Positions 1,424 to 37,588 of a stretch of DNA of 37,588 nucleotides are shown here, piece after piece. Below the pieces are notes generated by a model that saw only the letters and a list, made by a program, of their open reading frames with translations, did not search any database and had not been told where the DNA came from. The first letter of the stretch is position 1, and every line of letters starts with the position of its first letter. The DNA is from a virus (Duplodnaviria; Heunggongvirae; Uroviricota; Caudoviricetes), in IMG/VR virus record IMGVR_UViG_2563366827_000004, positions 1 through 37,588 of that record. The stretch is one strand, 5' to 3'. A program made the position numbers and the translations under genes.

Positions 1424-1478
1424 GCGCAACACCCCTGAGAACCGCCATGAACAAGGGTTTCATGATTTGTGATTTTAG

Positions 1479-1502
1479 TTTGGTACGCAATTTGGTACAC
1501 AA
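1479..1502. repeat. Tandem 12-bp direct repeat TTTGGTAC(G/A)CAA x2, candidate integrase arm-type site
   Basis: tttggtacgcaa immediately followed by tttggtacacaa, about 55 bp inside the inferred prophage end. Confidence 0.35.
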
Positions 1503-1847
1503 CACAATTTTCACTTCAGCGGGTAGTCATCAAACTCACCATAACGAGCATCGTTAATGATGTATGTGATCACCACAAATATCACATCTGGACTAGTTCC
1601 GTCTTCATGCGCAGGTATCTGTTCACGCCTCCCTTTCTGCAAATCCTAAAGATGAGATTTTGGGGTTTTGGGATATCTTTTTATCCTCAGTTCTCTATCA
1701 ATTCTACAAAGCAGTAATGAACCATCACTATGTGATAGTGAGGCATCCGCTACATTAAGCGCAGAGAAATGATGCAGTGGTGGGCGGACTGGCTTGATGA
1801 AAAGGTGGAGTGATGGTTATTCTAAATAAAAATAATGCATTAATTTA

Positions 1848-1870
1848 GCCCTTACATTATCTGTAAGGGC
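1848..1870. terminator. Hairpin just downstream of the tailspike stop
   Basis: gcccttaca-ttatc-tgtaagggc, a 9-bp perfect stem. T-rich flanks are modest on both strands. Confidence 0.4.
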
Positions 1871-1883
1871 TTTGCCTTAAAAA

Positions 1884-3731
1884 TTAAAAAAACTCTTTTC
1901 CTGTTGTAAACATGCCTTCGGGAAGACGCGCACCGTTAACTGAAGAAAATATAGGACCATAATATTGCTTGTTATAGCTTTGTTGAAATGAAATATATCC
2001 ACCACCATATCCGTTATCTGACATATTTACTTGCGAAAAATAACAATTAATTGTTGACGCATCAATATCTCTAAACTGCTGCATGAATCCGCATTGGCCA
2101 ACAACAACATCACCATCATCTTCTTTTTTTGTTAAAATAGGAAGGTGAATCCAGTTAAAATTCCTTGCGCTCGTAGCCATATGTGTATACACGCGCTCGC
2201 AAATAATATCATCACCAGATGTTTTATTTATTGCATAATTTGTCACGTTTGCTCCATCGCCAAATATAGTTTCAGCAACATAGCTATATGTAGATGACGA
2301 AACTGTAAGCGTTGATGCTGTATGTAGTGTTACATGCCTTGATAAGAGCAATTTAGGAGCATAACCAGAATCAAGGTTAAAGGATGCATTTTCTGTCCTC
2401 AACCTTTGAAGAAAATCACTATGACCACCATGGTATGTACCGAAGAACTTTCCAGTTGATAATTCTTTTGCAGCAAACTCTGTTGCTCCATTCCCACCGA
2501 AGTAATATGAAGGCCCCCCATTCACAAAAGGAGTTATTGTTGCTATAAAATTGTCATAATCTAGTAATTCACAACATCCAAGGCTAAAAACGTTTAGCCC
2601 AACGAGATTTGCAGGTTGAAGCGTTGTCGTATCTGTATTTTCAACTTTAAGATACCAAGTTCCTCCAAGTCCATTTATTTCAATATCAATAGGAAGTGGT
2701 GGCTGACCACCTGGTAATATTTTTGTGTCAACGATCTTTTGCGTTGTCCAGTCAGTGTTGTTTCTGCTTATTGATATTGTTACTGACTTACTTGATGCAT
2801 TAGAGCATGCAAGTCTGACATGCGCTATGCTATTTGTTAACATATATGTTACATAAGCGTTTGTGGAAATTGAATAAACTTGAGGTGTGTTAAGGGTGAA
2901 ATCACCTTGTTCTGTTTCCGCGTGTATAGCGTCATCTGTTTTAGAAAAGCCATACAATGTACTTATTTGAGATTCAGTAAATGAAGATAGGGAGACGCCA
3001 GTGTCACTTTTTGTATGTGGTGATAATTTTGCGATAACTGCATCACTTACCATATATACACTTCCAGGCCTAAAAGGTGATGCCCCGCCATAGTTATTCG
3101 AGTCTGATGGTGAAACCTCATTTGTTACTCTATGAGAAATATATTTTCCTTTCCCATGACATCTTTTACTTATAATATAAAAGTCATTAGAATTTTCATC
3201 TTTGACTATTGCTTTTATGTGTGTTGTTATTGTAGGTGATGTTGGGGGGATGATTGATGTCACAAAGTTAACATCTATAGATTTTCGCACATTAATAAAT
3301 TCATCATCTATACTAGTAATTTTATCTTTTAACGTTCCATCTTCATATCCAATATTTTCAGTCCCATCAGGACCTGCGAGAGACTTTGATAGTTGATCCG
3401 GGTCATACTTCAGAACATTCGGAAAATAGAACTGCTGCGCACCATACGCATCATAAACAGCCATAGAGTGGCCTTGCACGGTTACAAACTTGGCAATCTG
3501 TCCGTTATATACCGGATATCCAGAAGCGTTAATGATGATTGGTTGCGAAACAGGAACGTGAGAACCGTCTTCATTTTCCACATAAACCTGAATCTGGTTT
3601 TCATGATTTACCGGGTCAGTGTCAATTTTACCGATATAAATTTTACCATTAGCTACGGCTTTAAAAGAACGAGCCATAGTGAAGAGTTGCGAAGGCATTC
3701 CTATAACCACATTTGGTGTTATATTAGTCAT
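1884..3731 (-). CDS. Tailspike protein with P22 gp9-like N-terminal head-binding domain and divergent receptor-binding body
   Basis: From the internal Met at 3731 the first ~110 aa (MTNITPNVV...RSFKAVANGKIYIGKIDTDPVN...VQGHSMAVYDA...VLKYDPDQ) closely match the recalled P22 tailspike N-terminus. GGA RBS upstream. The rest does not resemble P22. Confidence 0.85.
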   Translation of the reverse strand: MTNITPNVVIGMPSQLFTMARSFKAVANGKIYIGKIDTDPVNHENQIQVYVENEDGSHVPVSQPIIINASGYPVYNGQIAKFVTVQGHSMAVYDAYGAQQFYFPNVLKYDPDQLSKSLAGPDGTENIGYEDGTLKDKITSIDDEFINVRKSIDVNFVTSIIPPTSPTITTHIKAIVKDENSNDFYIISKRCHGKGKYISHRVTNEVSPSDSNNYGGASPFRPGSVYMVSDAVIAKLSPHTKSDTGVSLSSFTESQISTLYGFSKTDDAIHAETEQGDFTLNTPQVYSISTNAYVTYMLTNSIAHVRLACSNASSKSVTISISRNNTDWTTQKIVDTKILPGGQPPLPIDIEINGLGGTWYLKVENTDTTTLQPANLVGLNVFSLGCCELLDYDNFIATITPFVNGGPSYYFGGNGATEFAAKELSTGKFFGTYHGGHSDFLQRLRTENASFNLDSGYAPKLLLSRHVTLHTASTLTVSSSTYSYVAETIFGDGANVTNYAINKTSGDDIICERVYTHMATSARNFNWIHLPILTKKEDDGDVVVGQCGFMQQFRDIDASTINCYFSQVNMSDNGYGGGYISFQQSYNKQYYGPIFSSVNGARLPEGMFTTGKEFF

Positions 3732-3833
3732 GTGTGCAATCCTATTAGACTTGTTTGATAAAGAAGATAATGGAGTTAATGCTACAAATGACGCTATTGA
3801 TTTGAAAAATGATCTTCTATTCATATTAAACAC

Positions 3834-3862
3834 ACATTAATGCAGAAAATTTGCATTAATGT
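3834..3862. promoter_or_regulatory. Perfect 11-bp inverted repeat (acattaatgca-N7-tgcattaatgt) between ejection-protein gene and tailspike
   Basis: Seen directly in the 190-bp gap upstream of the tailspike start. Operator or RNA hairpin. Confidence 0.35.
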
Positions 3863-3922
3863 AAGCAAAAAGCGCAATCAACTCCATAGCAATTTAATTT
3901 TTAACTGTAATTTACATCTACA

Positions 3923-5920
3923 TTACCATGACAACGCATCAGACTTAGCCCCCTGCGTCATAGCGTTAATGGCCTTTTGCGCCTGCTGCATGGCTTTCTC
4001 GAACACTGTTGATCCGCGTGGGGTGTTTGCCATTCGGAGCATTGCATTTCTGAATGGCTCGCTCTCATAGGCGCGAGTAAGAAGTCCGTAGCTTACTGCT
4101 GCGCCAGTTGTTGCAGGGTTCATTGCCGTCCCATACCCGATAATGAACGGGATGGTTTGCTGGCCTGTTGGTGTTGTTACTGCCGCTTTTGCAGCCTGCT
4201 GCGTGGATTGCAGGTAGTTTTTTAATCCTTTCAGATAAGCAGCGTCCTGCCCCTTAAATGTGATGCCAGTCTGGTTTTGCAGGATGTTAAGCTGCCGAAG
4301 GAACTGGTCAGGGGATCCGCCAGATTTCTCCATCGCCTTTCCAATGATGCCATTGCGCATTTGCGCCCTGCCAACACGACCAACTGAGTTATACAGCGTC
4401 TTAATTTCCGATTTGTTCTTGCTGAATAGCATGTTGTTGACAACTTCCGGCGTCAGGTCTCCTTTCATGAGAACATTCTTCAGCCTGGTATTCTTTAGTT
4501 TCGCCGCTTCGTCAGCGTAGACGGCATTGGCCTGCTGATATTTACGGAGAGTATCGTTGCCAAGATTCTGACCAATGGCACCATTGATATCGTCGGTCAT
4601 CGCCTTGTAAACACGTTGAATGGCGGCATCGGAACGGTTTGGTAACACTGGTCGCTCCCCCTTCACGTCCATTCTGAACTGGCTGCGCAGATCGCTTAAT
4701 TGCTTCAAATCCAGATTAACCGGACCATCAGGGCCAGCATTGCGAACAAGCTCATCACGATATGACTGAAGTTTTGAAATTGTCTCGTTATCAGCTACCT
4801 TACCAAGCTTCTGCAGATTAGATATTTCTGTATCAATCTGCTGAATTGCTCGCGCAGGCTGAATGTTTACTCCAGCCATAGCATTCTGAACCTGCTCCAG
4901 TCGATTACCGGCGGCACGACGAATTCCTGATGTTTTCGCTTTAAGGCTGTCAATAACAACAGATGGATCATACTCACCGAATTTATCAGCAAATCTCTGC
5001 ACCAACTGACTTCTCGCTTCCTGTTGCGTTGCTCTCATTCCGCTTGTGCCAGCCAGGGGGATATTTTCTGCTGTAGTCTGCGCCATTTTCCCGACGCGGG
5101 AAGTAGGCTGTAACAGGTCTGTGGTGTGCAGAGGAACTCCTTCACGCTCTGCAAATCTGATAGCCTGCTGCGCTTCTGGCGCAATAGCACCACGAACGCC
5201 ACGATAAGCAGCACCTAATCCACGTCCGGCAGCGTTAATAGCACCGCCAGCCAACACACCAACGCCTAAATCGGTGGCGAGTGCTTCCGCATCATCTTTC
5301 GCACTATTTGCAGCAAGTGATCCAACTGCGTTTTCTGCGAGAAGTCGTGTTGCCCCATGAGCAATTCGACCAGCAAGTGTTGGTGCCTGTGTTGCCGCCC
5401 TCTCAACGCCAGCAGGAGTGAGGTAAGGCAATGCTTCAGCAAATACCCTTCCCTCTGTCGTTTGTGGCGTCAGCGCGCCTTGCTGAAGGCCAAAGTCCTG
5501 CTCTAATCCCTGCGTTGTTACTCGTGGTGCTGGTTGATATGTACCATCGCCAATGCCGAGTTTACCGCCAGCCCAAGCCGCCGCGCTTGTTACAGCATCG
5601 GCAACTGATGCAGGTATGTTTGCCACGTTCACGCCAGCCTGCACCAGTCCGCGACCAGTCTCTTTCACTGCTTCACCAAGATCAGGCATAAATCCACTTT
5701 GCTGTGGTTGTTGCTGTGCTACTGGTTGCTGTGTCTCCACTGGCTGCACAGATGGCAATGGATAGGCTGCATAGAAAGCTTGCTTAGCCTGCTCTGCATT
5801 TTCTCCGGCTTGCGGGGCCACGACTTCATTGAAGTATTGCTCCTGAGCCTGCGCTTTTTGTTCTGGTGCTAACGCCTGATACTGTGGAGAGGCGATAACA
5901 TCTTTCCATGCTTTAGCCAT
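3923..5920 (-). CDS. DNA ejection (injection) protein, P22 gp16 position
   Basis: 665-aa ORF at the gp16 position of the conserved P22 order 7-20-16-tailspike; start overlaps upstream stop. Assigned by synteny and size only. Confidence 0.6.
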   Translation of the reverse strand: MAKAWKDVIASPQYQALAPEQKAQAQEQYFNEVVAPQAGENAEQAKQAFYAAYPLPSVQPVETQQPVAQQQPQQSGFMPDLGEAVKETGRGLVQAGVNVANIPASVADAVTSAAAWAGGKLGIGDGTYQPAPRVTTQGLEQDFGLQQGALTPQTTEGRVFAEALPYLTPAGVERAATQAPTLAGRIAHGATRLLAENAVGSLAANSAKDDAEALATDLGVGVLAGGAINAAGRGLGAAYRGVRGAIAPEAQQAIRFAEREGVPLHTTDLLQPTSRVGKMAQTTAENIPLAGTSGMRATQQEARSQLVQRFADKFGEYDPSVVIDSLKAKTSGIRRAAGNRLEQVQNAMAGVNIQPARAIQQIDTEISNLQKLGKVADNETISKLQSYRDELVRNAGPDGPVNLDLKQLSDLRSQFRMDVKGERPVLPNRSDAAIQRVYKAMTDDINGAIGQNLGNDTLRKYQQANAVYADEAAKLKNTRLKNVLMKGDLTPEVVNNMLFSKNKSEIKTLYNSVGRVGRAQMRNGIIGKAMEKSGGSPDQFLRQLNILQNQTGITFKGQDAAYLKGLKNYLQSTQQAAKAAVTTPTGQQTIPFIIGYGTAMNPATTGAAVSYGLLTRAYESEPFRNAMLRMANTPRGSTVFEKAMQQAQKAINAMTQGAKSDALSW

Positions 5921-7215
5921 TAATCACCCCATAGTGAAGAAAAATTACTGCCAGTAGTAGGTTGTTGCGCTGGCGTATTCTGTACTGGCTCCTGATAATC
6001 AAACTGTTTTTTAACAGTGCTCAACTTGCTTTCAAGCTGATTTCTAATCTTTCCGATAGAGTCACGAAAAGCCTTTTCACTCATTTTGGGGCTTAGGGCA
6101 CCAACCGCATCGGATAATTTTTTACCCTCAGCATCTGAAAGAGCACCCATACCCTTCAGGGACTGCACCATAGGAAGGAATGTTTGAGCTTTAAAGGTGT
6201 CGAGCCTTGCTTCAAAGTTAGCCGCATCAGAGCCAGGAACTGTCGGAAACGCTGAGCGAATTCCTACTGCTTTTGAAAGGCCGGGGCTTTGCTCTATCTC
6301 GTTGAGAGAATCAAGCGCGGTGCTGAACGTATCAACTGCACCCTGAGCGGCGGCCTGCCTGTCAGCGCGGGCTATGTCAGCCTTTTGCCGAACATCTGCC
6401 TGTTTCTGTTTTAGCTCTTCAAGCTTTAACTGATTGCTTTCTCTGGCTATCTGTCTGTCCAGAGCCTTTTCTTGTAATTCTGCTCTTTGTATTTCTCGGG
6501 AAAGAGCAGCATTCTGTGCGCTGATGTTCTGTCCACGTATCTGGATGTCCTGACCTCGAGCTGTTAGTGCTTCACCTGCCTGATTGCTGCGGATTGTCTC
6601 TGCCAGCCTGCCTCGGTCAATCTCACGACCAGCCATCTTGTCCTGAACATTGAAGTAATCAATCGGACCAAGCGCGGCCATTCCAAGGTGATCAACAAAC
6701 TCACCAAATCCTGAAGGATTCTGCTGATACATCTGAGCAACGTTATTAGGGTCAACACCGACGCGCGCCAGCTCATTGGCGTTGTTTTGCAGCCATGATT
6801 GCATTGCTTCTGGAGACGATGACGCAAGGCGTGCGCCAGCCGCTAAGGTGCCGATAGAATTACGCTGATCTTCATCAATGAATCCCATGCCTTTACGAAC
6901 GGATTCAATCTGTTCTGGATATTGAGTAGCCAACTGACGCAAAGCTCCGCGATCACCAGACGCATAAGCATTAGCGTACGCCTGCTGAAATTCTTTCTGC
7001 CGCTGAGCCTGCTTTTCCTGCTGAAACACCCCTGCAATACCTGAAAGACCTTGCAAAGCAGTCAGCCCAACATTGTTAGCGCCTGAACGCTCAATATCAT
7101 TGTTCTGCCTGATAAGCTGAAGCGTATTGCCGATGTCATTTACGCTCGGAGCGTTTGAGTTGACGCCGCCGATACCAGCTAACAATCCGCCATTTGATCC
7201 TTGCCAAGTAGCCAT
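5920..7215 (-). CDS. DNA ejection protein, P22 gp20 position
   Basis: 431-aa ORF between the gp7 and gp16 homologs; synteny. Confidence 0.6.
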   Translation of the reverse strand: MATWQGSNGGLLAGIGGVNSNAPSVNDIGNTLQLIRQNNDIERSGANNVGLTALQGLSGIAGVFQQEKQAQRQKEFQQAYANAYASGDRGALRQLATQYPEQIESVRKGMGFIDEDQRNSIGTLAAGARLASSSPEAMQSWLQNNANELARVGVDPNNVAQMYQQNPSGFGEFVDHLGMAALGPIDYFNVQDKMAGREIDRGRLAETIRSNQAGEALTARGQDIQIRGQNISAQNAALSREIQRAELQEKALDRQIARESNQLKLEELKQKQADVRQKADIARADRQAAAQGAVDTFSTALDSLNEIEQSPGLSKAVGIRSAFPTVPGSDAANFEARLDTFKAQTFLPMVQSLKGMGALSDAEGKKLSDAVGALSPKMSEKAFRDSIGKIRNQLESKLSTVKKQFDYQEPVQNTPAQQPTTGSNFSSLWGD

Positions 7216-7224
7216 GATTACCCC

Positions 7225-7917
7225 TTAAAACAACGAGCCAAGCAATCCGATACCAGCACCAATGCCAGCGCCCCAAGGTGTTGATGTTCCCAAAAGGCTG
7301 GCAAGACCTGCACCGGCAATCGCACCAGACGTTCCGCCACTAATTGCTGTCTGAAGACTTGATGGTTTGTTGGCATTAGCAGCGGCAAGAGCTGCGCTTT
7401 GCTGTGCAATGCTGCTCATGTTGTTGGCGTATGTCTGCCCGGCGTTTGCCTGACCTTGCAGCGCACCAAGCCCAACGTTTGCCAGATTATTGTAATTGCT
7501 CATCTGATTTGATAACCAAGACTGACCGAGTGTCGGCGCGATCGTAGCCAGTTGATTGCTTGTGGCTGTCGAACCAAGTCCACCCGTCGCCTCCGCAGCA
7601 GCAAGACTCTGGTAACGAGCCTGACCTGCAAGGTCTTTATACTGCTGAGAGTTGTAATACTGATTAAGTGCCTGCCCCTGACCTTCTAAACTGGAAAGGT
7701 TCTGAAGCTGGTTAACATACTGCTCCGCAAGAGGCGTGAACGGAGCAAGGTTTTTCATGATCGTCTGCCACTGCTGATTTTGCAGGTCTGCGGCATACTT
7801 CTGGGCTTCTGCTGCATACTTTGCGCTTTTATCAGAGCTACCACCTTTCCCGCCTTTTTCAGGGCAATAAGGTTCCTCGCCACGCAGTTTTCTGCCTAGC
7901 TTAAATGCATATAACAT
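7225..7917 (-). CDS. DNA ejection protein, P22 gp7-like
   Basis: 230 aa; N-terminus MLYAFKLGRKLRGEEPYCPEKGGKGGSSDKSAKYAAEAQKYAADLQNQQ and the Gly/Ala-rich C-terminus match recalled P22 gp7. Confidence 0.8.
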   Translation of the reverse strand: MLYAFKLGRKLRGEEPYCPEKGGKGGSSDKSAKYAAEAQKYAADLQNQQWQTIMKNLAPFTPLAEQYVNQLQNLSSLEGQGQALNQYYNSQQYKDLAGQARYQSLAAAEATGGLGSTATSNQLATIAPTLGQSWLSNQMSNYNNLANVGLGALQGQANAGQTYANNMSSIAQQSAALAAANANKPSSLQTAISGGTSGAIAGAGLASLLGTSTPWGAGIGAGIGLLGSLF

Positions 7918-7919
7918 GG

Positions 7920-8375
7920 CTATCTCCTGTGATTCAGGAAGTCGATTAGTTCTTCGCGTGTGGCGCTGTAAAAAGTCACGTCATCCACGCCTTTAAAGTA
8001 TTTCTTGATGGTTCCGACACGCTTAAGGCCAATCATTGCGCAGTAAATCTGCCCGTGGCGGAATTTGCGTGCGGCGAACGATGTGACGCACTGAACGGTG
8101 GTGTTAGTCAGAATGTATCGCCAGAACGCCAGCCCGATTTCCTTGCTGAACCCACGAACCTCTGGCAGGTACATGGCGTGGCAATCGAATGTCAGCGGCT
8201 GAATCTCCTGATAGTAAACAATGCCGCCGAACTGCCCGTGCACGTTCACCTCAAAGTAACGGCAATCAGGTTTGTAGTCGTATCCATCACCGTTATTGCT
8301 CCCGGCGATAATGTCAGGGTGATTTCCGACAGCTTCGATCAGGTCGATGTTTCGCGTTGGTTTGAATGTAATCAT
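7920..8375 (-). CDS. Virion protein at the P22 gp14 position
   Basis: 151-aa ORF between the gp26 and gp7 homologs; synteny only. Confidence 0.5.
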   Translation of the reverse strand: MITFKPTRNIDLIEAVGNHPDIIAGSNNGDGYDYKPDCRYFEVNVHGQFGGIVYYQEIQPLTFDCHAMYLPEVRGFSKEIGLAFWRYILTNTTVQCVTSFAARKFRHGQIYCAMIGLKRVGTIKKYFKGVDDVTFYSATREELIDFLNHRR

Positions 8376-9076
8376 CAGTCAATCAGCCCATGTAATCTAA
8401 GTGCCGTTTCAAGCGCCAGAATACGCTGCCGAGCCTGCTGCAAACCTGTAGCGAGAGCCGCGACTTCGGATTGTGTGTACGTAGTGCCGACCGTGTATGA
8501 CTGGTTAGCGTTGAATGAGCCAAGAAGAGGTGTACCTGTGGCTGCAGTCCATCCGGTCTGCCTTGCTCCAACGACCTGAATTCCATCAACTGAATATGAT
8601 GTTTTTACATCCAGCGGTGACGCAAGAGACTGCGATTCGGTTACGGTTTTCGATACGTAATCACTCTTAATGCCAGAGACATCGTTTTCTACGTTATCCA
8701 GTCTTTGGTCAACAGTGACCAGATGCGCCTGAATATCGATAACCTCATCCAGCAAGTAATCAACATCGCTACGCAGTACGACTATCTTCCCTTCGGCAGT
8801 TGTTAACCTGACCTCAAGTAGATTTATCGCTTTTGTGTTTGCGGTGATTCTTGCATCGTGATCTGCCAGTTCGACGTCCTGTTCATCGTTTTTTACCTGG
8901 GCATCGTAAGCGCCCTGACCAGCCTGATTTGCCTTCCCAGCAATTGCACCGACATCAGCTCCCTGATTTATGACATACAGCAGGTAAGACTGGCTGAATA
9001 TATTGCGTGGCAAAATTGAAGCATCAAGGCGCGTAGCCTGAACCACGACAGGATCATTCAGTGATGAATCAGCCAT
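8375..9076 (-). CDS. Tail needle protein, P22 gp26-like
   Basis: 233 aa; [25 protein letters not shown]...[22 protein letters not shown]...RLHGLID matches recalled P22 gp26. Confidence 0.85.
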
Positions 9077-26998: not shown

Positions 26999-27000
26999 AA

Positions 27001-29321: not shown

Positions 29322-29362
29322 GCTCTTTAACATTGATGGGATTGTCCCGCCGAAATGCGGGA
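29322..29362 (+). promoter_or_regulatory. nutL (boxA GCTCTTTAACA and boxB hairpin)
   Basis: boxB TCCCGC-CGAAAT-GCGGGA is identical to the nutR boxB. Confidence 0.7.
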
Positions 29363-29469
29363 ACCAAAGAGTAATTGGCTTTGGGGTGACGTGAAGTGCA
29401 GCTGCACGACGGCAACCGGAAGATAAGCACCCGGCGCGTCACCGCCAAAGTCAATCATCGGAGGTCAAC

Positions 29470-29769
29470 ATGACAGTAGTCATTACATATCTGGCTGACG
29501 ATAACGCCAGAAATCGCCGCAGAGCACGCAGACAGGCTCAACGTGAACAGGCGATGCAAGAACAGCGACTGGCGCGAAAAATTGCGCTAAAGCTCTCTGG
29601 TTGCGTCAGAGCGGATAAAGCAGCATCACTCGGAATCCTTCGCTGCAAGAAGGCAGATGAAGTCGAGAGTAAACAGAATCGTATTTACTACCGCAAGCCA
29701 CGCAGTGAAATGGGTGTGACTTGTGTTGGTCGCCAGAAAATGAAATTAGGCAGCAAACCACTTATTTGA
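29470..29769 (+). CDS. N: N-like antitermination protein
   Basis: 99 aa, first gene after pL/nutL, GGAGG RBS, N-terminal arginine-rich motif DNARNRRRARRQAQREQ. Confidence 0.7.
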   Translation: MTVVITYLADDNARNRRRARRQAQREQAMQEQRLARKIALKLSGCVRADKAASLGILRCKKADEVESKQNRIYYRKPRSEMGVTCVGRQKMKLGSKPLI

Positions 29770-29780
29770 GAGGAATTAAT

Positions 29781-30404: not shown

Positions 30405-30419
30405 TCGGCCTTTATTTTT
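30394..30419 (+). terminator. Intrinsic terminator overlapping the stop of the 207-aa gene
   Basis: AGGCCG-CATAGT-CGGCCT followed by TTATTTTT. Confidence 0.6.
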
Positions 30420-30448
30420 GGCATAAACAACAGAATAAACACTGCACT

Positions 30449-30476
30449 GTGTATTCATTCCAACGAGTGAATACAC
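30449..30476. promoter_or_regulatory. 12-bp inverted repeat (gtgtattcattc-caac-gagtgaatacac, 11/12 match)
   Basis: Seen directly between two terminators; no T-run follows. Confidence 0.3.
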
Positions 30477-30538
30477 GGAGCAATGTCGCTCGTAACTAAA
30501 CAGGAGCCGACTTGTTCTGATTATTGGAAATCTTCTTT

Positions 30539-30564
30539 GCCCTCCTATGTGAGGGCAATTTTTT
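30539..30564 (+). terminator. Second intrinsic terminator, immediately before the coiled-coil gene
   Basis: GCCCTC-CTATGT-GAGGGC followed by AATTTTTT, 12 bp before the GGAGG RBS. Confidence 0.55.
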
Positions 30565-30576
30565 GACGGAGGATAT

Positions 30577-31545
30577 ATGAGTGAAGTAACAGATTTAGTT
30601 GTTATTGAAAAAGCAAATGCAATGACTGTATTTCAGTCTGCCGACCAGATTGAAGAAATCCTTCAAAAGGTTGAACGTGAAGTTATGTCCTTTGTGCCTG
30701 ATATCACAACGGCAAAGGGCAGAAAGGAGATCGCTTCTCTGGCGTATAAAGTTGCGCAAACGAAAACATATCTCGATGGTCTTGGAAAAGACCTTGTTGC
30801 TGAACTGAAGGAAATTCCAAAGCTAATTGATGCCAACCGCAAGACAGTGCGTGATCGCCTTGATGAGCTGAAAGCCAAGGCACGCCAGCCTCTTACTGAT
30901 TATGAGGAGGAGCAGGCGCGGATTAAAGCCGAAGAAGAGGCTAAGGCAGCAGCTGAAGCTCTCGCAAAGCAAATTGAGTCTGACCATGAAATAGCGATTT
31001 TGATGGATCGCGAATTTGACCGCCAAAGAGAAGAGGCAAGACTCAAAGCGGAGCAGGAAAAGCGAGAGCATGAAGAACGCTTAAAAAGAGAAGCTGAAGA
31101 GAAAGCCAGAGCAGAAGCCGAAGCAAAGGCAAAAGCCGAAATTGAAGCAGCAGCAAGGCGAGAAGCAGAGGCTAAGGCCGCAGCGGAACGTGCAGAGCGT
31201 GAACGCATTGAAGCCGAGCAACGAGCACAGCGCGAAGCAAAAGAGGCAGCAGAACGGGCTGAAAGAGAAAAGCAGGCGGCAATTGAAGCAGAACGCCGAA
31301 AAGCACAGGAGGAGGCAGAACGAATCCGGCGCGAGGCTGAAGCAAAAGAGCAAGCCAGAATAGCAGAAGAAAAAAGAATCAAGGACGAAGAAGAGCGTAG
31401 AGCAAAGGATAAAGCTCACCGGAAAGAAGTAAATAACAAAATACTTGCTGACCTTATCAAGGTTGGCGCATCAGAAGATGTTGCTAAAAATATCATAACA
31501 GCCATCGTAAAAGGCGAAGTATTCGCAACAAAAATAACCTACTAA
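30577..31545 (+). CDS. Hypothetical protein with a long E/R/K/A-rich helical repeat region
   Basis: 322 aa; about 150 central residues are almost only E, A, R, K, Q; globular-looking N- and C-termini; GGAGG RBS. Confidence 0.7.
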   Translation: MSEVTDLVVIEKANAMTVFQSADQIEEILQKVEREVMSFVPDITTAKGRKEIASLAYKVAQTKTYLDGLGKDLVAELKEIPKLIDANRKTVRDRLDELKAKARQPLTDYEEEQARIKAEEEAKAAAEALAKQIESDHEIAILMDREFDRQREEARLKAEQEKREHEERLKREAEEKARAEAEAKAKAEIEAAARREAEAKAAAERAERERIEAEQRAQREAKEAAERAEREKQAAIEAERRKAQEEAERIRREAEAKEQARIAEEKRIKDEEERRAKDKAHRKEVNNKILADLIKVGASEDVAKNIITAIVKGEVFATKITY

Positions 31546-31569
31546 TAAAACCAACATAAGGAACCACCC

Positions 31570-31701
31570 ATGATTTACGCAATCGCGGGAGGCGCTCGCA
31601 TGGGTGCCTTCCAACTAAATGAATCTTTACTTGAACGAATCACCCGTAAATTACGTGACGGATGGAAAAGAGTTGAGATCTTATTATGCGCAATGAAATA
31701 G
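31570..31701 (+). CDS. Possible small protein (43 aa)
   Basis: ATG 31570 after AAGGAA; below the track cutoff. Confidence 0.3.
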   Translation: MIYAIAGGARMGAFQLNESLLERITRKLRDGWKRVEILLCAMK

Positions 31702-31838
31702 CCATCAATCACCAGATGCTTCGTGCTGCACAGAACAAAGCAGTAATAGCCAGATTTATTGGTGATTCAAAAATGTGGCTTGAAGCAAATAAAGCGATGA
31801 AATCAGCTATCAACCTTCCGTGGTATCGCAGGAAATGA
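31686..31838 (+). CDS. Possible small protein (50 aa)
   Basis: Overlaps the previous ORF; stop overlaps the next start (ATGA). Confidence 0.3.
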   Translation: MRNEIAINHQMLRAAQNKAVIARFIGDSKMWLEANKAMKSAINLPWYRRK

Positions 31839-31993
31839 GTTTTACAGATAACTGGTCAGACGAAGAATTCATTCGTCAGATGAAAGATTTAATCGGTAAC
31901 GAAGGAGATATTCATGTCACTTGCAACCACAGTGAAGGAGAGCAAGTTACAGAGACGCATGTACACGCAGAAAGCTCTCTGGTATCGCCATAA
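31835..31993 (+). CDS. Possible small protein (52 aa)
   Basis: ATGA-coupled to the previous ORF; below the track cutoff. Confidence 0.3.
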   Translation: MSFTDNWSDEEFIRQMKDLIGNEGDIHVTCNHSEGEQVTETHVHAESSLVSP

Positions 31994-32092
31994 TGGTGAC
32001 CGCGAAGGAATGCGGGTATGCCTTAATTTGTCCCGAGTCGAAGTATTAAATCAGCGTTATTTCCTTGGGCCTTGTCCATTCTGAGGTGAATT

Positions 32093-32800
32093 ATGGATTT
32101 GAACAAATTCGATGAGCCATTCAGCCCTGAAGATATCGAATGGCGAATACAGCAAAGCGGTAAAACACGCGATGGCAAGGTGTGGGCTATGGTGCTGGCT
32201 TATATCACGAACCGGGCAATCATGAAACGCCTGGACGATGTTTGCGGCAAAGCAGGATGGCGCAATGAATACCGCGATATTCCCAACAACGGCGGCGTTG
32301 AATGCGGCATATCAATAAAGATTGATTCCGAATGGGTAACCAAATGGGATGCTGCTGAAAACACGCAGGTAGAAGCCGTCAAAGGTGGTCGTTCAGGTGC
32401 AATGAAGCGTGCTGCCGTTCAGTGGGGAATCGGTCGGTATCTGTATAACCTTGAGGAAGGTTTCGCACAAACATCTCTCGATAAAAAGCAGGGGTGGCAC
32501 AGGGCAAAACTGAAGGATGGAACAGGATTTTACTGGCTCCCTCCATCGCTGCCGGGATGGGCAATCCCAGCATCAGATAACAAACCATCACCAGAAAATA
32601 CCAACCAGAAATCTCCATCGGTTGACTGCGAACAAATCCTGAAAGACTTCAGCGATTATGCGTCAACAGAAACTGACAAGAAAAAACTCATCGAGCGTTA
32701 TCAGCGTGACTGGCAATTAATGGCTGGCAACGAGGAGGCGCAGGCTAAATGCGTTCAGGTAATGAACATCAGAGTTAACGAACTAAAACAGGCGGCATAA
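32093..32800 (+). CDS. Single-strand annealing recombinase (Rad52/Erf-type SSAP)
   Basis: 235 aa; motif AMKRAAVQWGIGRYLYNLE is typical of Rad52-like phage annealases; the C-terminal ~50 aa resemble what I recall of the P22 Erf C-terminus (unverified). Confidence 0.7.
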   Translation: MDLNKFDEPFSPEDIEWRIQQSGKTRDGKVWAMVLAYITNRAIMKRLDDVCGKAGWRNEYRDIPNNGGVECGISIKIDSEWVTKWDAAENTQVEAVKGGRSGAMKRAAVQWGIGRYLYNLEEGFAQTSLDKKQGWHRAKLKDGTGFYWLPPSLPGWAIPASDNKPSPENTNQKSPSVDCEQILKDFSDYASTETDKKKLIERYQRDWQLMAGNEEAQAKCVQVMNIRVNELKQAA

Positions 32801-33274
32801 ATGGCAAGCAGAGGCGTAAATAAGGTGATCATTATTGGTCGCCTTGGGCATGATCCAGAAATCAGATATTCACCATCAGGAACGGCATTTGCAAACCTTA
32901 CAGTTGCTACGTCAGAACAATGGCGTGATAAGCAAACTGGAGAGCAAAAGGAGCAGACGGAGTGGCACCGTGTGGTAATGAGCGGGAAACTAGCAGAAAT
33001 TGCCAGCGAGTATCTGCGAAAAGGCTCTGAGGTTTATCTTGAAGGCAAATTGCGGACAAGAAAATGGCAGGATCAAAGCGGACAGGATCGGTTCACTACC
33101 GAAGTTATCGTAGGCGTTGGTGGAACCATGCAAATGCTTGGTGGCAAGCAAGGAGGCAATGAACAGTCTTCACCTCAGCGAAATAACGGTCAGCAACAAA
33201 GACAGCAACCTCTGCAGCAGGGAAATCACAGCGAACCACCTATGAACTTCGACGATTCGGATATTCCGTTCTAG
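32801..33274 (+). CDS. ssb: Single-stranded DNA-binding protein
   Basis: 157 aa; OB-fold-like N-terminus, Gln/Gly-rich linker and acidic tail ending DDSDIPF. Confidence 0.9.
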
Positions 33275-33283
33275 GAGCTGAAT

Positions 33284-33763
33284 ATGAAAATCTGCTCAAG
33301 ATGCCATCAACAGAAGGAAGAAAAGGACTTTCAAATCAGAAGAGCATCCAGAGATGGATTAACTGCCGCTTGCCGGGCTTGCCTGGCTGAATACGACAAA
33401 GAGCGCGCGGGATTGCCACATCGAGTATCAGCAAGGAGAGAATATCAATCATCGGAACGCGGCAGAGAACGGTGTAACGCAGCCAAAAAGCGGTTCATTC
33501 AGAGCAACCCATGGAAAAGAAAAGCCCACATCATCGTGGGTAATTTTTTGCGCGACGGTAAGCTAATCCGACCACCACAATGTGAGTGCTGCGGATCAGA
33601 ATGTAAACCACAGGCGCACCACTGCGACTACAGCAAACCAACCGATGTGATGTGGCTCTGCAAGTCATGTCATGTCGAGTGGCACAAACATAACAAACCT
33701 ATCTACCCAGACGAGGAACCAGTAACTCTCCCCTTCCCTCGTCACGCTATTCACGCAATTTAA
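33284..33763 (+). CDS. HNH endonuclease-like zinc-binding protein
   Basis: 159 aa; N-terminal Cys pairs and C-terminal CECCGSE...AHHCDY...LCKSCHVEWH, an HNH-type motif. Confidence 0.6.
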   Translation: MKICSRCHQQKEEKDFQIRRASRDGLTAACRACLAEYDKERAGLPHRVSARREYQSSERGRERCNAAKKRFIQSNPWKRKAHIIVGNFLRDGKLIRPPQCECCGSECKPQAHHCDYSKPTDVMWLCKSCHVEWHKHNKPIYPDEEPVTLPFPRHAIHAI

Positions 33764-33776
33764 TCAGGAGAAAATC

Positions 33777-34070
33777 ATGCCAGCGCCTCTGTATGGTGCG
33801 GATGACGCGCGCCGCTGTTCCGGCAATTCCGTATCGGAGGTGCTGGATAAATTCAGAAAAAACTACGATCGAATAATGTCGCTACCGCAGGAAACGAAAG
33901 AGGAAAAGGAATTTCGCCATTGTATATGGCTTGCAGAGAAAGAAGAACGCGAGCGAATTTACCAGACATCAATCCGACCATTCCGCAAAGCCACATATAC
34001 CCACTTCCCTGAAATTGACCCGCGCCTGCGTAATTACCGCTCACGCTATGGCGCTATCAGTAATGACTGA
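33777..34070 (+). CDS. Hypothetical protein
   Basis: 97 aa; AGGAG RBS 6 nt upstream. Confidence 0.5.
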
Positions 34071-34080
34071 GGAATTTACC

Positions 34081-34245
34081 ATGAGAGGACTTGCATACAA
34101 TCCCGGCATTCTTCCGGCAGAAATGATTATTCGCCAACGCGTAAAGCCAATGCCATCGAGAGAGGAATTGCTCAAGAGAAATTCTTTTCCATCAGTAAAT
34201 CAAAACAAATATCTGAATGCGATGTGGCGGAGTGGGAAGAAATGA
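34081..34245 (+). CDS. Hypothetical small protein (54 aa)
   Basis: ATG 34081 after GAGGAA; start choice uncertain (alternative ATG 34060). Confidence 0.35.
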
Positions 34246-34778
34246 AACAAATGTCACTAATTGAGATGGATGGATTTCTGAAAGGTAAATGCATCCCACG
34301 AGATTTAAAGGTTAACGAAACAAACGCTGAATATCTGGTGCGTAAATTTGCTGAAGCGGAGGCCAAGATTTCGGCTCTGTCCGAAGACCACCAGAAAGCG
34401 ATTGAGTCAATTAAGCAGGCTGATGCGGCTGTTAAGTTGGCACACGAGAAGTTTTCGGCGCTGGCGGCGGAGAATGCGGGGCTGAAGTCTGGCGCTATGG
34501 ACGAAATCAAGGTTATCAACCGTGGAGGGCAGGCATATTGCGTAAAAGATGGAGTGCAAGTTAATCCCATGTATGCAAGAGGGTGGAATGACTATCGCGC
34601 AAAGTCTATGCAATCAGACACCCCAGCCACCGATGCTTTCCTGACTGAAATTGAACGCAAAGCAATCCGAAAGTTCATTAACAGCATTGAACACATCCTG
34701 CGTGACAAGTTGTCACCGTATGACACCGAAGAGATGCTTGAGACTATGCGTATTTTTCTGGAAGAACAGGGAGGCTAG
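34242..34778 (+). CDS. Hypothetical protein (178 aa)
   Basis: ATGA overlap with the upstream stop; GGAG RBS. Confidence 0.55.
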
Positions 34779-34783
34779 CAAAA

Positions 34784-35098
34784 ATGACAATCACAAAACA
34801 ACGAGTAGAAAAAATCATATATCGCCATGAAATGGGACTGAACAGCGATGTCACTGCCGAAGAGGTTTATGACCTGGCTGTACTGGCGCTGAATTTATCA
34901 AATATCGCAAACCTGAAGCGATACGAGCTTGATATGGGAGGTTGCGACTCGTGCGGTCAGGATTGTGGCGCTGACATGACTGAAGATTCTGATGGCGATT
35001 ATGTCCTGTTTGATGACGTGGTTAAGTTGTTTGAGTTTGATACAACCACTCAGAAGTTAGAAGGCCCAGCAAAGGAGACAACCAGTGAGCGAAATTGA
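34784..35098 (+). CDS. Hypothetical acidic protein (104 aa)
   Basis: ORF with RBS; cysteine cluster CDSCGQDCG. Confidence 0.5.
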   Translation: MTITKQRVEKIIYRHEMGLNSDVTAEEVYDLAVLALNLSNIANLKRYELDMGGCDSCGQDCGADMTEDSDGDYVLFDDVVKLFEFDTTTQKLEGPAKETTSERN

Positions 35099-35981
35099 CT
35101 ATCAGGCACTGCGTGAAAAGGCAGAGAAAGCAACGTGTGGGGTGTGGTCGCTCGAATATGGAGAGAGCCGATTTGATTGTGATGATGCGCTAATTCATCG
35201 TGACGTTGTTGGATATATTCCCATTTGCAGAATTGAAGGAGCGCATCCTGAAAGCGGTTTCGATGAAGATTTCCAAATGGAACAGCAGGCCAATGCTGAA
35301 TTCATCGCCGCAGCCAATCCGGCTACTGTGCTGGCACTACTGGATGAACGGGAAAGAAACCAGCAATACATAAAACGCCGCGACCAGGAGAACGAGGAGA
35401 TTGCGCTAACGGTAGGGAAGCTGCGCGTTGAGCTGGAAGGCAAAGACAAGCTGATTGCAGAGCTTAGAAAACAATGCGCTGAATGGGAGCGAAAAGCATT
35501 AAGCAACTTTGAAGAGTGTGCTGCGATGGCTGAACGTATCGAAGAGTTGCAGACAAAATCTGCACCAGATTCGTTTGGCATCATCGGTGAAAATATTCGA
35601 ACACAGGATAATCGAATAACGTCAGACCCTATGTTTTGTGTGTATCAAAAGCGCGAAATCGTTGTTGATGCTGATTATGACTATGACCGGATTGTCTGGG
35701 TTGATGAAGATGGCAATGAAGCCAATAAACGCCAAAGTCGTCGTCTCGAACTACTTCACGAAAACTTTCGAGAGCCACCAGAAAAGTGGCGGCGCGTTGC
35801 TGTGAAAGATATTGATGAATTCGTTACCTGCTGTTTCACCGAACAGGGTTGTAAAGATTACCTGGCAGTCAATGGTCACAATCTTCGCTTGCCATTTATA
35901 TATGTAAAAAGTGGTTTCAGGAACGCTGAATATATCGGCATAAGAAACTGGCTTGCTGGCATTCGCATCAAAGGAGAGTGA
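35085..35981 (+). CDS. Ead/Ea22-like protein
   Basis: 298 aa; GTG start after AAAGGAGA; block ANAEFIAAANPATVLALLDERE is characteristic of Ead/Ea22-like prophage proteins. Confidence 0.65.
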   Translation: MSEIDYQALREKAEKATCGVWSLEYGESRFDCDDALIHRDVVGYIPICRIEGAHPESGFDEDFQMEQQANAEFIAAANPATVLALLDERERNQQYIKRRDQENEEIALTVGKLRVELEGKDKLIAELRKQCAEWERKALSNFEECAAMAERIEELQTKSAPDSFGIIGENIRTQDNRITSDPMFCVYQKREIVVDADYDYDRIVWVDEDGNEANKRQSRRLELLHENFREPPEKWRRVAVKDIDEFVTCCFTEQGCKDYLAVNGHNLRLPFIYVKSGFRNAEYIGIRNWLAGIRIKGE

Positions 35982-35982
35982 G

Positions 35983-36174
35983 ATGAACGGACAAATATCA
36001 ATTGTTCGACCGGGAGCATGTGACGATTGCGAGATACGAATGATTATTCGTCTGGCGATGGGGAAAACAATAACTGCTCTCATTACTCCTGAAAATCTCG
36101 CATTAGCATTAACAGGAAAGTCAGACCTGCCAGTAGAGCTAAAGCTGCGAAACGTTGAGATTAAAGTGAAATAG
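35983..36174 (+). CDS. Hypothetical small protein (63 aa)
   Basis: ATG 35983 after AAGGAGAG, 1 bp after the upstream stop. Confidence 0.45.
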   Translation: MNGQISIVRPGACDDCEIRMIIRLAMGKTITALITPENLALALTGKSDLPVELKLRNVEIKVK

Positions 36175-36176
36175 TT

Positions 36177-36701
36177 ATGAATACTCTTACCAAAGAATGG
36201 TTACAGAACACGATTACCAGCATTGAGTCAGCACGGGATGAAATACCGTTCGGACTCAATGAAGATCAAAACAACATGCTTACCGCATTAAAAATTGCAC
36301 TGACATCGCTGGAAGCAGAGCCGGTGGCATGGAAGGCAACCTTCACGCAAATTGACAATGAATATAATACATTCACCACTATGTATTCTGACAAAGCAGA
36401 AGTCGAACGCTGGGTGCGACTGCATGAAATAGGTGACTTTCGGGCAGAAATAACACCGCTTTACGCAGCGCCGTCAGCGCCGGTAATTCCGGATGGTTGG
36501 ATAAGCTGTAGTGAGCGGATGCCAGATGATGGTCAGCACGTAATTATTTTATGTGATGGCGCATTCGTTCTTTATGCGCAATATCGAGACGGAGAGTTTT
36601 TCGATATTGTCCGCAATGGTGATGAATTTTTCGAAACACAGAGTCGCAATGTAACCGACTGGATGCCGCTGCCAGAACCGCCGGAGCAGGATGGTGAATG
36701 A
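36177..36701 (+). CDS. DUF551-like phage protein
   Basis: 174 aa; C-terminal part (DGWISCSERMPDDGQHVIILCDG...DWMPLPEPP) resembles the DUF551 family seen in lambdoid early-left regions. Confidence 0.55.
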   Translation: MNTLTKEWLQNTITSIESARDEIPFGLNEDQNNMLTALKIALTSLEAEPVAWKATFTQIDNEYNTFTTMYSDKAEVERWVRLHEIGDFRAEITPLYAAPSAPVIPDGWISCSERMPDDGQHVIILCDGAFVLYAQYRDGEFFDIVRNGDEFFETQSRNVTDWMPLPEPPEQDGE

Positions 36702-36787
36702 TGCCGCCAGTTAAAGTTGTGATTATCACTTTGGTGATGATAGTGATTGCGAGAATCATGTCTGGTGAAATTGGGTGGATATGGTAA
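36698..36787 (+). CDS. Possible 29-aa hydrophobic peptide
   Basis: MMPPVKVVIITLVMIVIARIMSGEIGWIW; ATG overlaps the upstream stop; single predicted TM helix. Confidence 0.3.
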   Translation: MMPPVKVVIITLVMIVIARIMSGEIGWIW

Positions 36788-36888
36788 TGACCATGGCAGC
36801 AGCAGATCGCAACTAACAATCCTCGCACTCGCGGGGATTTCTTTTATCTGAACTCGCTACGGCGGGTTTTGTTTTATGGAGATGATAA

Positions 36889-37056
36889 ATGCACTTTCGA
36901 GTCACAGGTGAATGGAATGGAGAGCCATTCAACAGGGTTATCGAAGCAGAGGACATCAACGACTGCTATAACCACTGGATGATATGGGCGCAGATAGCGC
37001 ATGCAGACGTAACCAATATTCGAATTGAAGAACTGAAAGAACACCAAGACGCCTGA
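36889..37056 (+). CDS. Hypothetical small protein (55 aa)
   Basis: ATG 36889, 7 nt after GGAG; followed by a hairpin and T-run. Confidence 0.4.
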   Translation: MHFRVTGEWNGEPFNRVIEAEDINDCYNHWMIWAQIAHADVTNIRIEELKEHQDA

Positions 37057-37069
37057 TGGCGGTTTTTTT
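37050..37069 (+). terminator. Weak hairpin plus T7 run (CGCC-TGAT-GGCG then TTTTTTT)
   Basis: Seen directly; stop codon of the 55-aa ORF lies in the loop. Confidence 0.35.
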
Positions 37070-37080
37070 GGGGGTAGTAG

Positions 37081-37296
37081 ATGGCTGCAATTCACATTGT
37101 CTCAATAATATGCAATGCAATTCAGATAGTTGCTTGCATTATCTTTGTTTTCTCAATCCTTCGCTCCCGACGATATTCTCCAGCAATTAACCGACATCCT
37201 GCACAGGTTGAAGCCGTCAGGATGGCTATAGAGTTACGAAATGAGATGAATAAGGCATTAATGGAGATGGAGAAACCATTCACTGACAAACATTAA
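37081..37296 (+). CDS. Small membrane protein (71 aa)
   Basis: MAAIHIVSIICNAIQIVACIIFVFSIL: N-terminal TM helix followed by a charged helical tail. Confidence 0.5.
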   Translation: MAAIHIVSIICNAIQIVACIIFVFSILRSRRYSPAINRHPAQVEAVRMAIELRNEMNKALMEMEKPFTDKH

Positions 37297-37358
37297 GAGT
37301 GTAAATAAAGAAATCACACCGCCTCACACTCGATGAGGCATGTACATATCTGATAGAT

Positions 37359-37381
37359 CCGCTATATGGCGGTTTCTTTTT
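37359..37381 (+). terminator. Weak hairpin plus T-run (CCGC-TATATG-GCGG then TTTCTTTTT) upstream of xis
   Basis: Seen directly; same GGCGGTTT motif as the element at 37050. Confidence 0.3.
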
Positions 37382-37396
37382 GCCTGGAGAATTAAG

Positions 37397-37588
37397 ATGA
37401 CCGATACCAGCCTGATTCCTGAGAAAGAAGTGATGAACAAGCTCGGTGTTTCATCACGTCAGACAATCTGGAACTATACCAAACGGCACGGATTTCCGAA
37501 GCCAGTCAGAACCCACCCCAAATCATACCTTCGTGAAGCTGTTGAAGGGTGGATTCTTAACGGTGGCGTTAATCAGAAATGCTCCTGA
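37397..37588 (+). CDS. xis: Excisionase / AlpA-family DNA-binding protein
   Basis: 63 aa from MTDTSLIPEKEVMNKLGVSSRQTIWNYTKRHGFPKPV...; GGAGA RBS; last gene before the expected int; stop is the final triplet of the window. Confidence 0.65.
   Translation: MTDTSLIPEKEVMNKLGVSSRQTIWNYTKRHGFPKPVRTHPKSYLREAVEGWILNGGVNQKCS

Follow-up and report, generated by a model that had tools for sequence, protein, structure and literature searches.

What kind of element fills the 37,588 nucleotides (nt) of IMG/VR virus record IMGVR_UViG_2563366827_000004, and could it still produce phage? A first-pass annotation of this stretch, which was analysed over its whole length (positions 1 to 37,588) and is called the window below, had proposed a mosaic, complete, inducible 'hybrid' lambdoid podophage of temperate habit. 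In our reading the element is, with high probability, an apparently complete prophage of a temperate, P22-like podophage (Lederbergvirus-type, drawn from the 'lambdoid' gene pool) inserted in the sbcB gene of Escherichia coli; its identification as a P22-like mosaic prophage is virtually certain. Gene content, synteny, the repressor and the attachment (att) cores bear out the earlier description, except that 'hybrid' suggests something unusual and mosaicism is normal here. The prophage is ordinary: an additional mosaic member of a well-known kind of phage, with sequence already present in a public assembly.

Genes were assigned by comparing each open reading frame (ORF) by tblastn with lambda, P22, Sf6, HK620 and CUS-3, and with Pfam and PHROGs; start codons were checked. 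Joints between modules were mapped with 250-nt tiles against seven phages and with lists of high-scoring segment pairs against nine. The coordinates of all features are collected in Table 1.

The left end of the element can be placed to the base. Window positions 1-1424 are host DNA, 99.1% identical to E. coli K-12, and comprise dacD, the dacD-sbcB intergenic DNA and the first 49 nt of sbcB, in that order; the prophage follows (1425-37588). Similarity to K-12 ceases exactly at 1424, so the start coordinate chosen in the first-pass annotation is indeed the host/prophage junction. The 13-bp core TTTCACGATTACG ends at this junction, and its second copy lies beyond the window in a public scaffold (GCA_000352585.1, KB733087.1; locus L011), which was retrieved by a look-up with the DUF551 protein (36177-36701) and is 100% identical to window positions 26177-37588, with 0 mismatches in 11,412 nt. 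There the core occupies positions 12786-12798, within a 30-nt imperfect repeat. From the two core copies, the prophage is therefore about 37.55 kb long, of which the window holds 36.2 kb. TTTCACGATTACG is the reverse complement of CGTAATCGTGAAA, the 13-bp attP of Sf101 and phage 2851, published together with the sbcB site of these two sbcB-integrating phages (PMC4159516); the core occurs once each in Sf101 and E212.

Past the window end, the scaffold encodes a tyrosine integrase of 392 amino acids (aa) on the opposite strand, followed by full-length sbcB. The integrase is identical to Sf101 Int at 389 of 392 positions and has the domains Arm-DNA-bind_3 and Phage_integrase; its gene, outside the window, is convergent with the AlpA-like gene and overlaps it by 20 nt on the other strand. 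Loss of int beyond the window, which had been named as a possible weakness of the earlier description, is answered by this intact gene in an identical public contig. With cores at both ends and a cognate integrase convergent with the AlpA-like gene, the integration module is, by its sequence, of the sbcB-integrating Sf101/phage 2851 type. The start of sbcB in the lysogen, MTDTDKQPTFLFHDY, is supplied by the phage (scaffold positions 12753-12800): 13 phage codons replace the first 14 native codons, MMNDGKQQSTFLFHDY. Because the phage encodes this substitute N-terminus, the lysogen retains a full-length exonuclease I gene, with another N-terminus and other upstream DNA. A tRNA scan of the window found none, so integration was not at a tRNA gene. 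The sbcB-dacD site in E. coli LD39-1 is occupied by a comparable P22-like prophage. The stop codons of dacD and of the AlpA/excisionase-like gene mark the start and the end of the window itself.

Between these ends the layout is lambdoid, with divergent cI and cro, N, cII, O-type replication, a nin region, Q and a holin-endolysin-spanin cassette upstream of the virion genes. By tblastn and Pfam, the thirteen virion genes from TerS to the tailspike are each present once, in P22 order and at full length. They had been described as P22-type, which is right for the family models and the gene order; within the block, however, only TerL and TerS are close to P22 itself, and the rest are CUS-3- or Sf6-type. 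Coat, scaffold, portal and gp4 show 95-100% aa identity to CUS-3 versus 28-34% to P22. The ejection proteins gp16, gp20 and gp7 match Sf6 gp13/12/11 over their full length at 98-99% aa identity (97% nt), and gp14, gp26, gp10 and gp4 have full-length matches at 93-99% aa. The terminase genes are 99% nt identical to those of E212. Judged from these alignments, the virion block is a mosaic of a P22-type terminase, a CUS-3-type portal, scaffold and coat, Sf6-type ejection proteins and a rare tailspike. The part of TerS equivalent to the P22 pac site has differences at several positions, so identity of pac with P22 is not claimed. At the portal/TerL junction (15619-15676), where the CUS-3-type procapsid cluster meets the P22-type terminase, E212 has the identical join.

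The same patchwork extends over the whole element. When the best of nine sequenced phages is taken for each base, identity reaches at least 85% over 91.8% of the prophage and at least 95% over 88.1%; the parts lacking an 85% match are the receptor-binding region of the tailspike (1815-3393), the short intergenic stretch 3725-3928, the Nmad5 gene and part of the DUF551 gene. By this comparison, nearly every module has a counterpart in a sequenced phage at >95% identity. The first-pass annotation had placed module joints at TerS/Rha/Rz, at helicase/ninB and at O/cII. All three exist, yet they make up only a minor part of the total. On the flanks of rha, similarity to E212 breaks exactly at 18084 and 18622. 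At O/cII, lambda identity starts at about 27300; this joint is not specific to the prophage, because CUS-3 carries it unchanged (99-100% identity). Further joints on the virion side lie at gp16/tailspike, within gp20, and at gp14/gp26, gp26/gp10, gp10/gp4, portal/TerL and TerS/DUF2560; elsewhere they lie inside Rz, at ninF/ninX, ninX/ninE and cII/nutR, inside N, on both sides of the Nmad5 gene, and at several places in the ea region. The Sf6 record annotates boundary sequences, short conserved stretches thought to be sites of lambdoid phage recombination, and four of the joints coincide with these (bsq7, bsq6, bsq4 and bsq3).

No phage among 50,697 records and none of 5,426 complete E. coli genomes contains the same prophage at 80% coverage or more (best 70% and 78%, respectively). 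The lack of one genome holding at least 80% of the element is typical for the P22-like family. Among single Lederbergvirus-type members, the best align with 46-52% of the prophage, their identity there being about 96-97%, and classified members differ among themselves similarly in these comparisons. In P22-like phages such mosaicism is documented as normal (PMC2629481, PMC4159516): they are mosaically related lambdoid members that have Q genes identical to that of lambda and exchange their early regions freely (PMC2629481), their ejection proteins are mosaically conserved (PMC8954989), and Sf101 has been described as 'highly mosaic' (PMC4159516). The prophage thus adds another case of documented lambdoid modular exchange, with crossovers at already annotated boundary sequences, and answers no open question. 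Of practical use are the identification of its immunity type (HK620) and integration site (sbcB), together with the record of a P22-type terminase, a CUS-3-type capsid and Sf6-type ejection proteins in a combination that looks viable.

Individual phages share different parts of it. The largest single match is CUS-3 (CP000711), a P22-like, K1-specific temperate phage to which 51.6% of the prophage bases align. Its rha, helicase, O and cII products are 100% aa identical to those of the prophage and N is 98% identical, alongside the coat, scaffold, portal and gp4 proteins at 95-100%. Unlike the prophage, CUS-3 has an endosialidase tailspike, an ant/mnt region, neuO and a phage 21-type Q; its terminase, cI/cro and gp20/gp16 differ, and its integrase is IntS-type at argW, with int beside the tailspike. 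Sf101 (NC_027398), an ultraviolet-inducible, serotype-converting, P22-like phage, has the same integrase, 13-bp attP, sbcB site and convergent int/AlpA arrangement, and also CUS-3-type head genes, a lambda-type Q-nin block and rha; it differs in having oacB, another terminase, other immunity, a primase-type replication gene, a longer gp16 and another tailspike. E212 (MZ043897), isolated on enterotoxigenic E. coli (ETEC) K88, is colinear from gp7 to terS (7201-17864) at 95.5% nt identity. It shares the P22-type terminase joined to CUS-3-type head genes and the attP-flanking DNA, and it too is without O-antigen conversion genes; no O-antigen modification genes were found in the prophage gene inventory. 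E212 differs in its lambda-type O/P replication, its cI, gp20/gp16, rha-position gene and tailspike body, and its intact DUF2560 gene.

Sf6 (NC_005344) resembles the prophage in gp16, gp20, gp7 and gp14 (96-99% aa), in the early-left block from gp33 to abc2 (98% nt), in Rz/Rz1 and the Dam-ninB region, and in the lack of an ant/mnt region. Its terminase, portal, scaffold and coat are of its own type; it also differs in its 434-like immunity, phage 21-type Q with tRNAs, IS911 in ninG, oac and argW integrase. With HK620 (NC_002730) the prophage shares cI, cro, the operators, nutL, the N-terminus of N, the lambda-type Q and the needle gp26, whereas head genes, replication genes, most of the nin region, ejection proteins, tailspike and integrase differ. 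P22 (NC_002371) has the same gene order throughout, with 92% aa identity in TerL, 90% in the helicase, 97% in Q, 90% in Rz and 95-97% in ninF, ninG and ninB; in contrast, coat (28%) and portal (34%) are distant, immunity and integrase site are different, and the window is without the sieA, mnt, arc, ant and gtrABC genes of P22. Finally, lambda (NC_001416) matches 15% of the prophage at 95-99% nt identity, all of it in regulatory, nin and lysis genes. Alignment found nothing in the prophage from the head, tail, replication P, immunity or int/xis sequences of lambda, and no match to lambda 1-29000 apart from a short stretch near 29106-29360. On this evidence, the prophage is not a siphovirus and is not Lambdavirus-like.

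The regulatory genes resolve in the same manner. The immunity operators had been called unique; they are not, for HK620 7454-9527 and window 27587-29661 are 98.7% identical across the cro-OR-cI-OL region, and five of the six operators (OR1, OR3, OL1, OL2 and OL3, as annotated in HK620) are unchanged. By its repressor and operator sequences, the immunity region is of HK620 type. The alignment to lambda, P22, Sf6 and HK620 that the first-pass annotation had suggested thus shows a mosaic, as it expected, with a module map much finer than it stated and with an immunity not unique to the element. The cI protein has the Pfam domains HTH_3 and Peptidase_S24 and keeps the lambda cI cleavage site Ala117-Gly118 and the catalytic Ser155 and Lys197; from these conserved autocleavage residues, it is a cleavable repressor.

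The O-like initiator with a DnaB-type helicase, recognized earlier as a P22-style arrangement, is upheld by matches to Phage_rep_O and DnaB/DnaB_C and by 90% aa identity to P22 gp12. Iterons of 12 nt lie inside the O gene (26441-26583), and over 24650-27690, the stretch that takes in the helicase and cII, nt identity to CUS-3 is 99.1%.

Near-identity to lambda had also been claimed for the lysis genes, Q, the nin genes, cII and the pR' region. It holds at 96-99% for S, R, pR', Q, ninI/H/G, ninB and cII, but not for Rz beyond its first ~120 nt. Lambda 42297-46235 aligns with window 19162-23071 at 95.8%, covering the Rz 5' end, R, S, pR'/qut/tR', Q, ninI, ninH, ninG and ninF, and ninB with its upstream boundary (24164-24681) is 98.6% identical; at the protein level, Q, ninI, ninH, ninG and ninB are 98-100% identical. 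The interval from Q to S matches lambda through the pR' -35/-10, qut and the 6S RNA terminator, with one stretch of about 50 nt replaced. Rz is 98-100% identical to lambda in its first ~80 nt, ~90% in the next 40 and 50-80% thereafter, versus 90-100% to Sf6 over the whole gene, which places a lambda/P22-type crossover inside Rz at about 19290-19330.

If the parts work together, the life cycle would run as follows. In the lysogen, cI would keep pL and pR off at the HK620-type operators until SOS-triggered, RecA-stimulated autocleavage of cI lifted repression. N, and then the lambda-type Q at the lambda-type pR'/qut, would open the early and late operons by antitermination. Int and the AlpA-like protein would excise the genome, which O and DnaB would replicate from the iterons in the O gene, and the P22-type terminase would package it by headful into the CUS-3-type capsid. 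The lambda-type holin and endolysin, with the spanin, would lyse the cell, and the released particle would adsorb through its tailspike to an O antigen. Autocleavage, antitermination, excision, replication, packaging, lysis and adsorption are proposed here by analogy with established lambda and P22 biology.

Several observations favor a working phage. The essential genes are all full length, and protein lengths match those of the nearest homologues. No uncompensated frameshift was found inside genes when gaps were examined in alignments at 92% identity or more to nine references; the frame-breaking gaps considered as damage proved to be compensating pairs in divergent stretches, intergenic, or a frameshift in CUS-3 itself. 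The prophage contains no insertion sequence (IS) elements. Regulators and their sites are matched pairs (HK620 cI with HK620 operators; lambda Q with lambda pR'/qut/tR'). E212 is an isolated phage that infects ETEC K88, so a viable phage that pairs a P22-type terminase and a CUS-3-type head does exist. The record of vB_EcoP-720R6 combines Sf6-type gp16/gp20 with a CUS-3-type head; as this is a partial genome with host flanks, it gives no evidence of viability. We consider it probable, from the gene complement, that the prophage can release infectious particles.

Some points weigh against a functional prophage, or against parts of our reading. Most conspicuous is a 61-bp deletion at 17864/17865 relative to E212, HK620, Sf6, CUS-3 and 720R6 (five of the nine references), which removes the ribosome-binding site, the ATG start codon and the first 21 codons of the DUF2560 gene and leaves a 59-codon remnant. 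Alignments to all the references are split into separate segment pairs at this point. The earlier statement that all essential genes are intact stands as regards full length and the absence of frameshifts, with the qualification that this conserved gene is 5'-truncated. Rz1 ends in ...SEVE* and is 3 aa shorter than the ...SEVESTG* form of Sf6, CUS-3, Sf101 and P22. OR2 (27947-27963) differs from that of HK620 at one of 17 positions (CAATACTTAGGGTATTT here, CAATACTCAGGGTATTT in HK620). The integrase lies outside the window and is known from the identical public contig alone; the genome, at about 37.55 kb, is slightly below the references used (38.25-41.7 kb); inactivating point mutations may escape comparison; and inducibility is predicted from the genes. 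Our doubt about particle release comes from the DUF2560 truncation, the shortened Rz1 and mutations invisible to sequence comparison.

The strongest alternative, accordingly, is that the prophage is defective (cryptic): complete-looking, but yielding no infectious particles because of the DUF2560 truncation, the short Rz1, a missense change or an incompatibility between modules. The truncated gene is conserved at 95-99% nt identity in all nine reference phages, and its undeleted form is present in all of the top ten full-length matches listed for the phage collection and for the E. coli collection; Rz1 lacks its last three residues, and the exact module combination is the one absent, at 80% coverage or more, from the 5,426 complete E. 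coli genomes and the phage records. Yet the genes known to be essential in P22 are all full length without frameshifts, both att cores and the integrase are intact with no IS elements, and the module pairings recur in the isolated phage E212 (terminase and head) and in 720R6 (Sf6-type ejection proteins beside a CUS-3-type head). In P22, the region between the lysis genes and gene 3 holds no gene known to be essential. We regard a cryptic prophage as fairly unlikely. If the prophage is inducible, the deletion would show that the N-terminal part of the DUF2560 gene is dispensable.

An assembly chimera, or a pair of neighbouring prophage remnants, is a highly improbable source of the mosaic: the nearest relative does change abruptly every few kilobases, but there is a single P22-like gene order with each function present once, one pair of att cores and a length near (slightly under) that of the reference phages; over the 11.4 kb compared, an independent public scaffold shows 100% identity; and the joints fall on Sf6-annotated conserved boundary sequences, where lambdoid recombination is expected.

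Within the P22-like prophage favored here, we flag one rare component, the receptor-binding domain of the tailspike. The N-terminus of this protein is a P22-type head-binding domain, with phmmer matches to the structures of the N-terminal domains of Sf6 gp14 and P22 gp9; PDB matches are limited to residues 1-151. The receptor-binding part (1884-3392, - strand) has a G+C content of 37%, versus about 50% for the prophage, and belongs to no Pfam family; by sequence, it is also without a relative in PDB. A tblastn search of the 50,697 phage records found related sequences only in Aeromonas (38% aa) and Vibrio (26% aa) phages, while several E. coli chromosomes contain it at 99.4-99.9% nt identity, in at least one of them beside an IntS-type integrase. 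One speculative reading, which we think rather doubtful, is that it may be an uncharacterised type of polysaccharide depolymerase for an E. coli surface glycan without a described phage enzyme. It would then have come from beyond the pool of enterobacterial phages and been joined to a head-binding domain of the standard P22 kind, and the remainder of the prophage would still be ordinary.

Table 1. Features of the window, in order of position. Strand is + or -, and identities are to the named phage or host; nt, nucleotide; aa, amino acid.
Feature	Position	Strand	Basis or nearest relative
dacD (host gene)	1-1167	-	99.1% K-12 identity over 1-1424; ORF checked
sbcB native 5' end remnant, MMNDGKQQSTFLFHDY, displaced to this prophage end	1376-1424	+	alignment to K-12 sbcB
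att core TTTCACGATTACG, 13 bp	1412-1424	+	direct repeat
attP-flanking phage DNA	1425-1883	.	93-97% nt identity to Sf101 and E212
Small ORF, Sf101 gp17 homologue	1469-1717	+	no Pfam match
Tailspike, 615 aa	1884-3731	-	Pfam Head_binding, E = 9e-65
gp16, ejection protein	3923-5920	-	Sf6-type; Pfam Inj_translocase (gp16/gp20/gp7 group)
gp20, ejection protein	5920-7215	-	Sf6-type
gp7, ejection protein	7225-7917	-	Sf6-type; Pfam P22_gp7
gp14	7920-8375	-	Sf6-type; full-length match; Pfam P22_Tail-4 in gp14/gp26/gp10/gp4 group
gp26, tail needle	8375-9076	-	HK620/CUS-3-type; full-length match
gp10	9076-10494	-	full-length match
gp4	10504-10965	-	CUS-3-type; full-length match
Small ORF	10946-11134	-	CUS-3/Sf101-type
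Coat	11176-12429	-	CUS-3/Sf101-type; Pfam P22_CoatProtein
Scaffold	12448-13341	-	CUS-3/Sf101-type
Portal	13432-15636	-	CUS-3/Sf101-type; Pfam P22_portal
TerL	15633-17129	-	P22-type; 92% aa to P22 gp2; Pfam Terminase_6N/6C
TerS	17107-17595	-	P22-type; 77% aa to P22 gp3; Pfam GP3_package
DUF2560 remnant, 5'-truncated (homologue of HK620 hkbM, P22 orf80)	17675-17854	-	alignment to E212, HK620
Rha-family regulator	18084-18626	-	CUS-3/Sf101-type; 100% aa identity to CUS-3; Pfam Phage_pRha + ORF11CD3
Rz	18973-19410	-	98% aa identical to Sf6, 59% to lambda
Rz1, embedded in Rz	19035-19211	-	
bsq7, inside Rz	19295-19342		
Endolysin R	19407-19883	-	98-99% aa identical to lambda
Holin S	19867-20190	-	98-99% aa identical to lambda
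pR', qut, 6S RNA with tR' (lambda-type late promoter region)	20191-20858	-	base-by-base alignment to lambda 44506-45190
Q	20859-21482	-	
ninI	21479-22144	-	
ninH	22122-22328	-	
ninG	22325-22936	-	
ninF	22929-23105	-	
ninX	23105-23464	-	Pfam NinX
ninE	23467-23643	-	
Dam methyltransferase	23640-24167	-	Pfam Dam; 97% identical to Sf6 region
ninB	24164-24604	-	
bsq6, ninA/tR2 boundary sequence (helicase/ninB joint)	24606-24681	-	97-100% identical in lambda, Sf6, HK620, 720R6
DnaB-type helicase	24678-26054	-	Pfam DnaB + DnaB_C; 90% aa identical to P22 gp12
O-type initiator	26051-26998	-	Pfam Phage_rep_O
90-aa ORF	27001-27273	-	
cII	27296-27589	-	97.0% nt identical to lambda over 27303-27606
cro	27698-27892	-	98% aa identical to HK620
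OR1-3	27923-27988		within immunity region 27698-29769
cI	27999-28715	+	238/238 aa identical to HK620
hkaS-like gene	28734-29102	+	
OL1-3	29211-29274		followed by nutL
N	29470-29769	+	98% aa identical to CUS-3
Nmad5-family accessory gene in pL operon	29781-30404	+	Pfam Nmad5, E = 8e-71; gene call from L011
bsq4, at tL2a	30444-30556		
Sf6 gp33-like	30577-31545	+	early-left, Sf6-type
cIII	31570-31701	+	early-left, Sf6-type
kil	31686-31838	+	early-left, Sf6-type
Erf/Rad52 annealing protein	32093-32800	+	early-left, Sf6-type
SSB (single-strand DNA-binding protein)	32801-33274	+	early-left, Sf6-type
Sf6 gp26-like	33284-33763	+	early-left, Sf6-type
Abc2	33777-34070	+	early-left, Sf6-type
DUF2737	34081-34245	+	early-left, Sf6-type
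'ea' region, small accessory genes	34242-37296	+	Pfam, PHROGs; patchy matches to HK620, 720R6, Sf101
Ead/Ea22-like	35085-35981	+	ea region
bsq3	35086-35116		
DUF551	36177-36701	+	ea region
AlpA/excisionase-like helix-turn-helix gene, 63 aa	37397-37588	+	PHROG 'excisionase and transcriptional regulator'; weak AlpA match

The remaining early genes call for few comments. The AlpA/excisionase-like gene is 97.8% nt identical to Sf101 gp19. Between O and cII, the lambda match of a longer frame (27001-27546, -) is to an alternative frame of cII, and the 90-aa call was adopted instead. The Nmad5 ('nucleotide modification associated domain 5') gene follows N and precedes the Sf6 gp33-like gene, has the conserved tL2a boundary sequence on its right, and is 96.5% aa identical in mEp235 and Stx1a-converting phages. 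The ORF opposite it (30041-30442, -), considered as a sieB-like exclusion gene, has no Pfam, PHROG or reference-phage match and is probably no gene.

The early-left genes (30577-34245) show 96-100% aa identity to Sf6, and 98.1% nt identity over 30394-34084; their Pfam families were found via the same genes in the L011 scaffold. The Sf6 gp33-like gene (322 aa) is intact here and in Sf6, while the CUS-3 record splits it into two ORFs by a 1-nt difference (window 30908 versus CUS-3 35058-36027).

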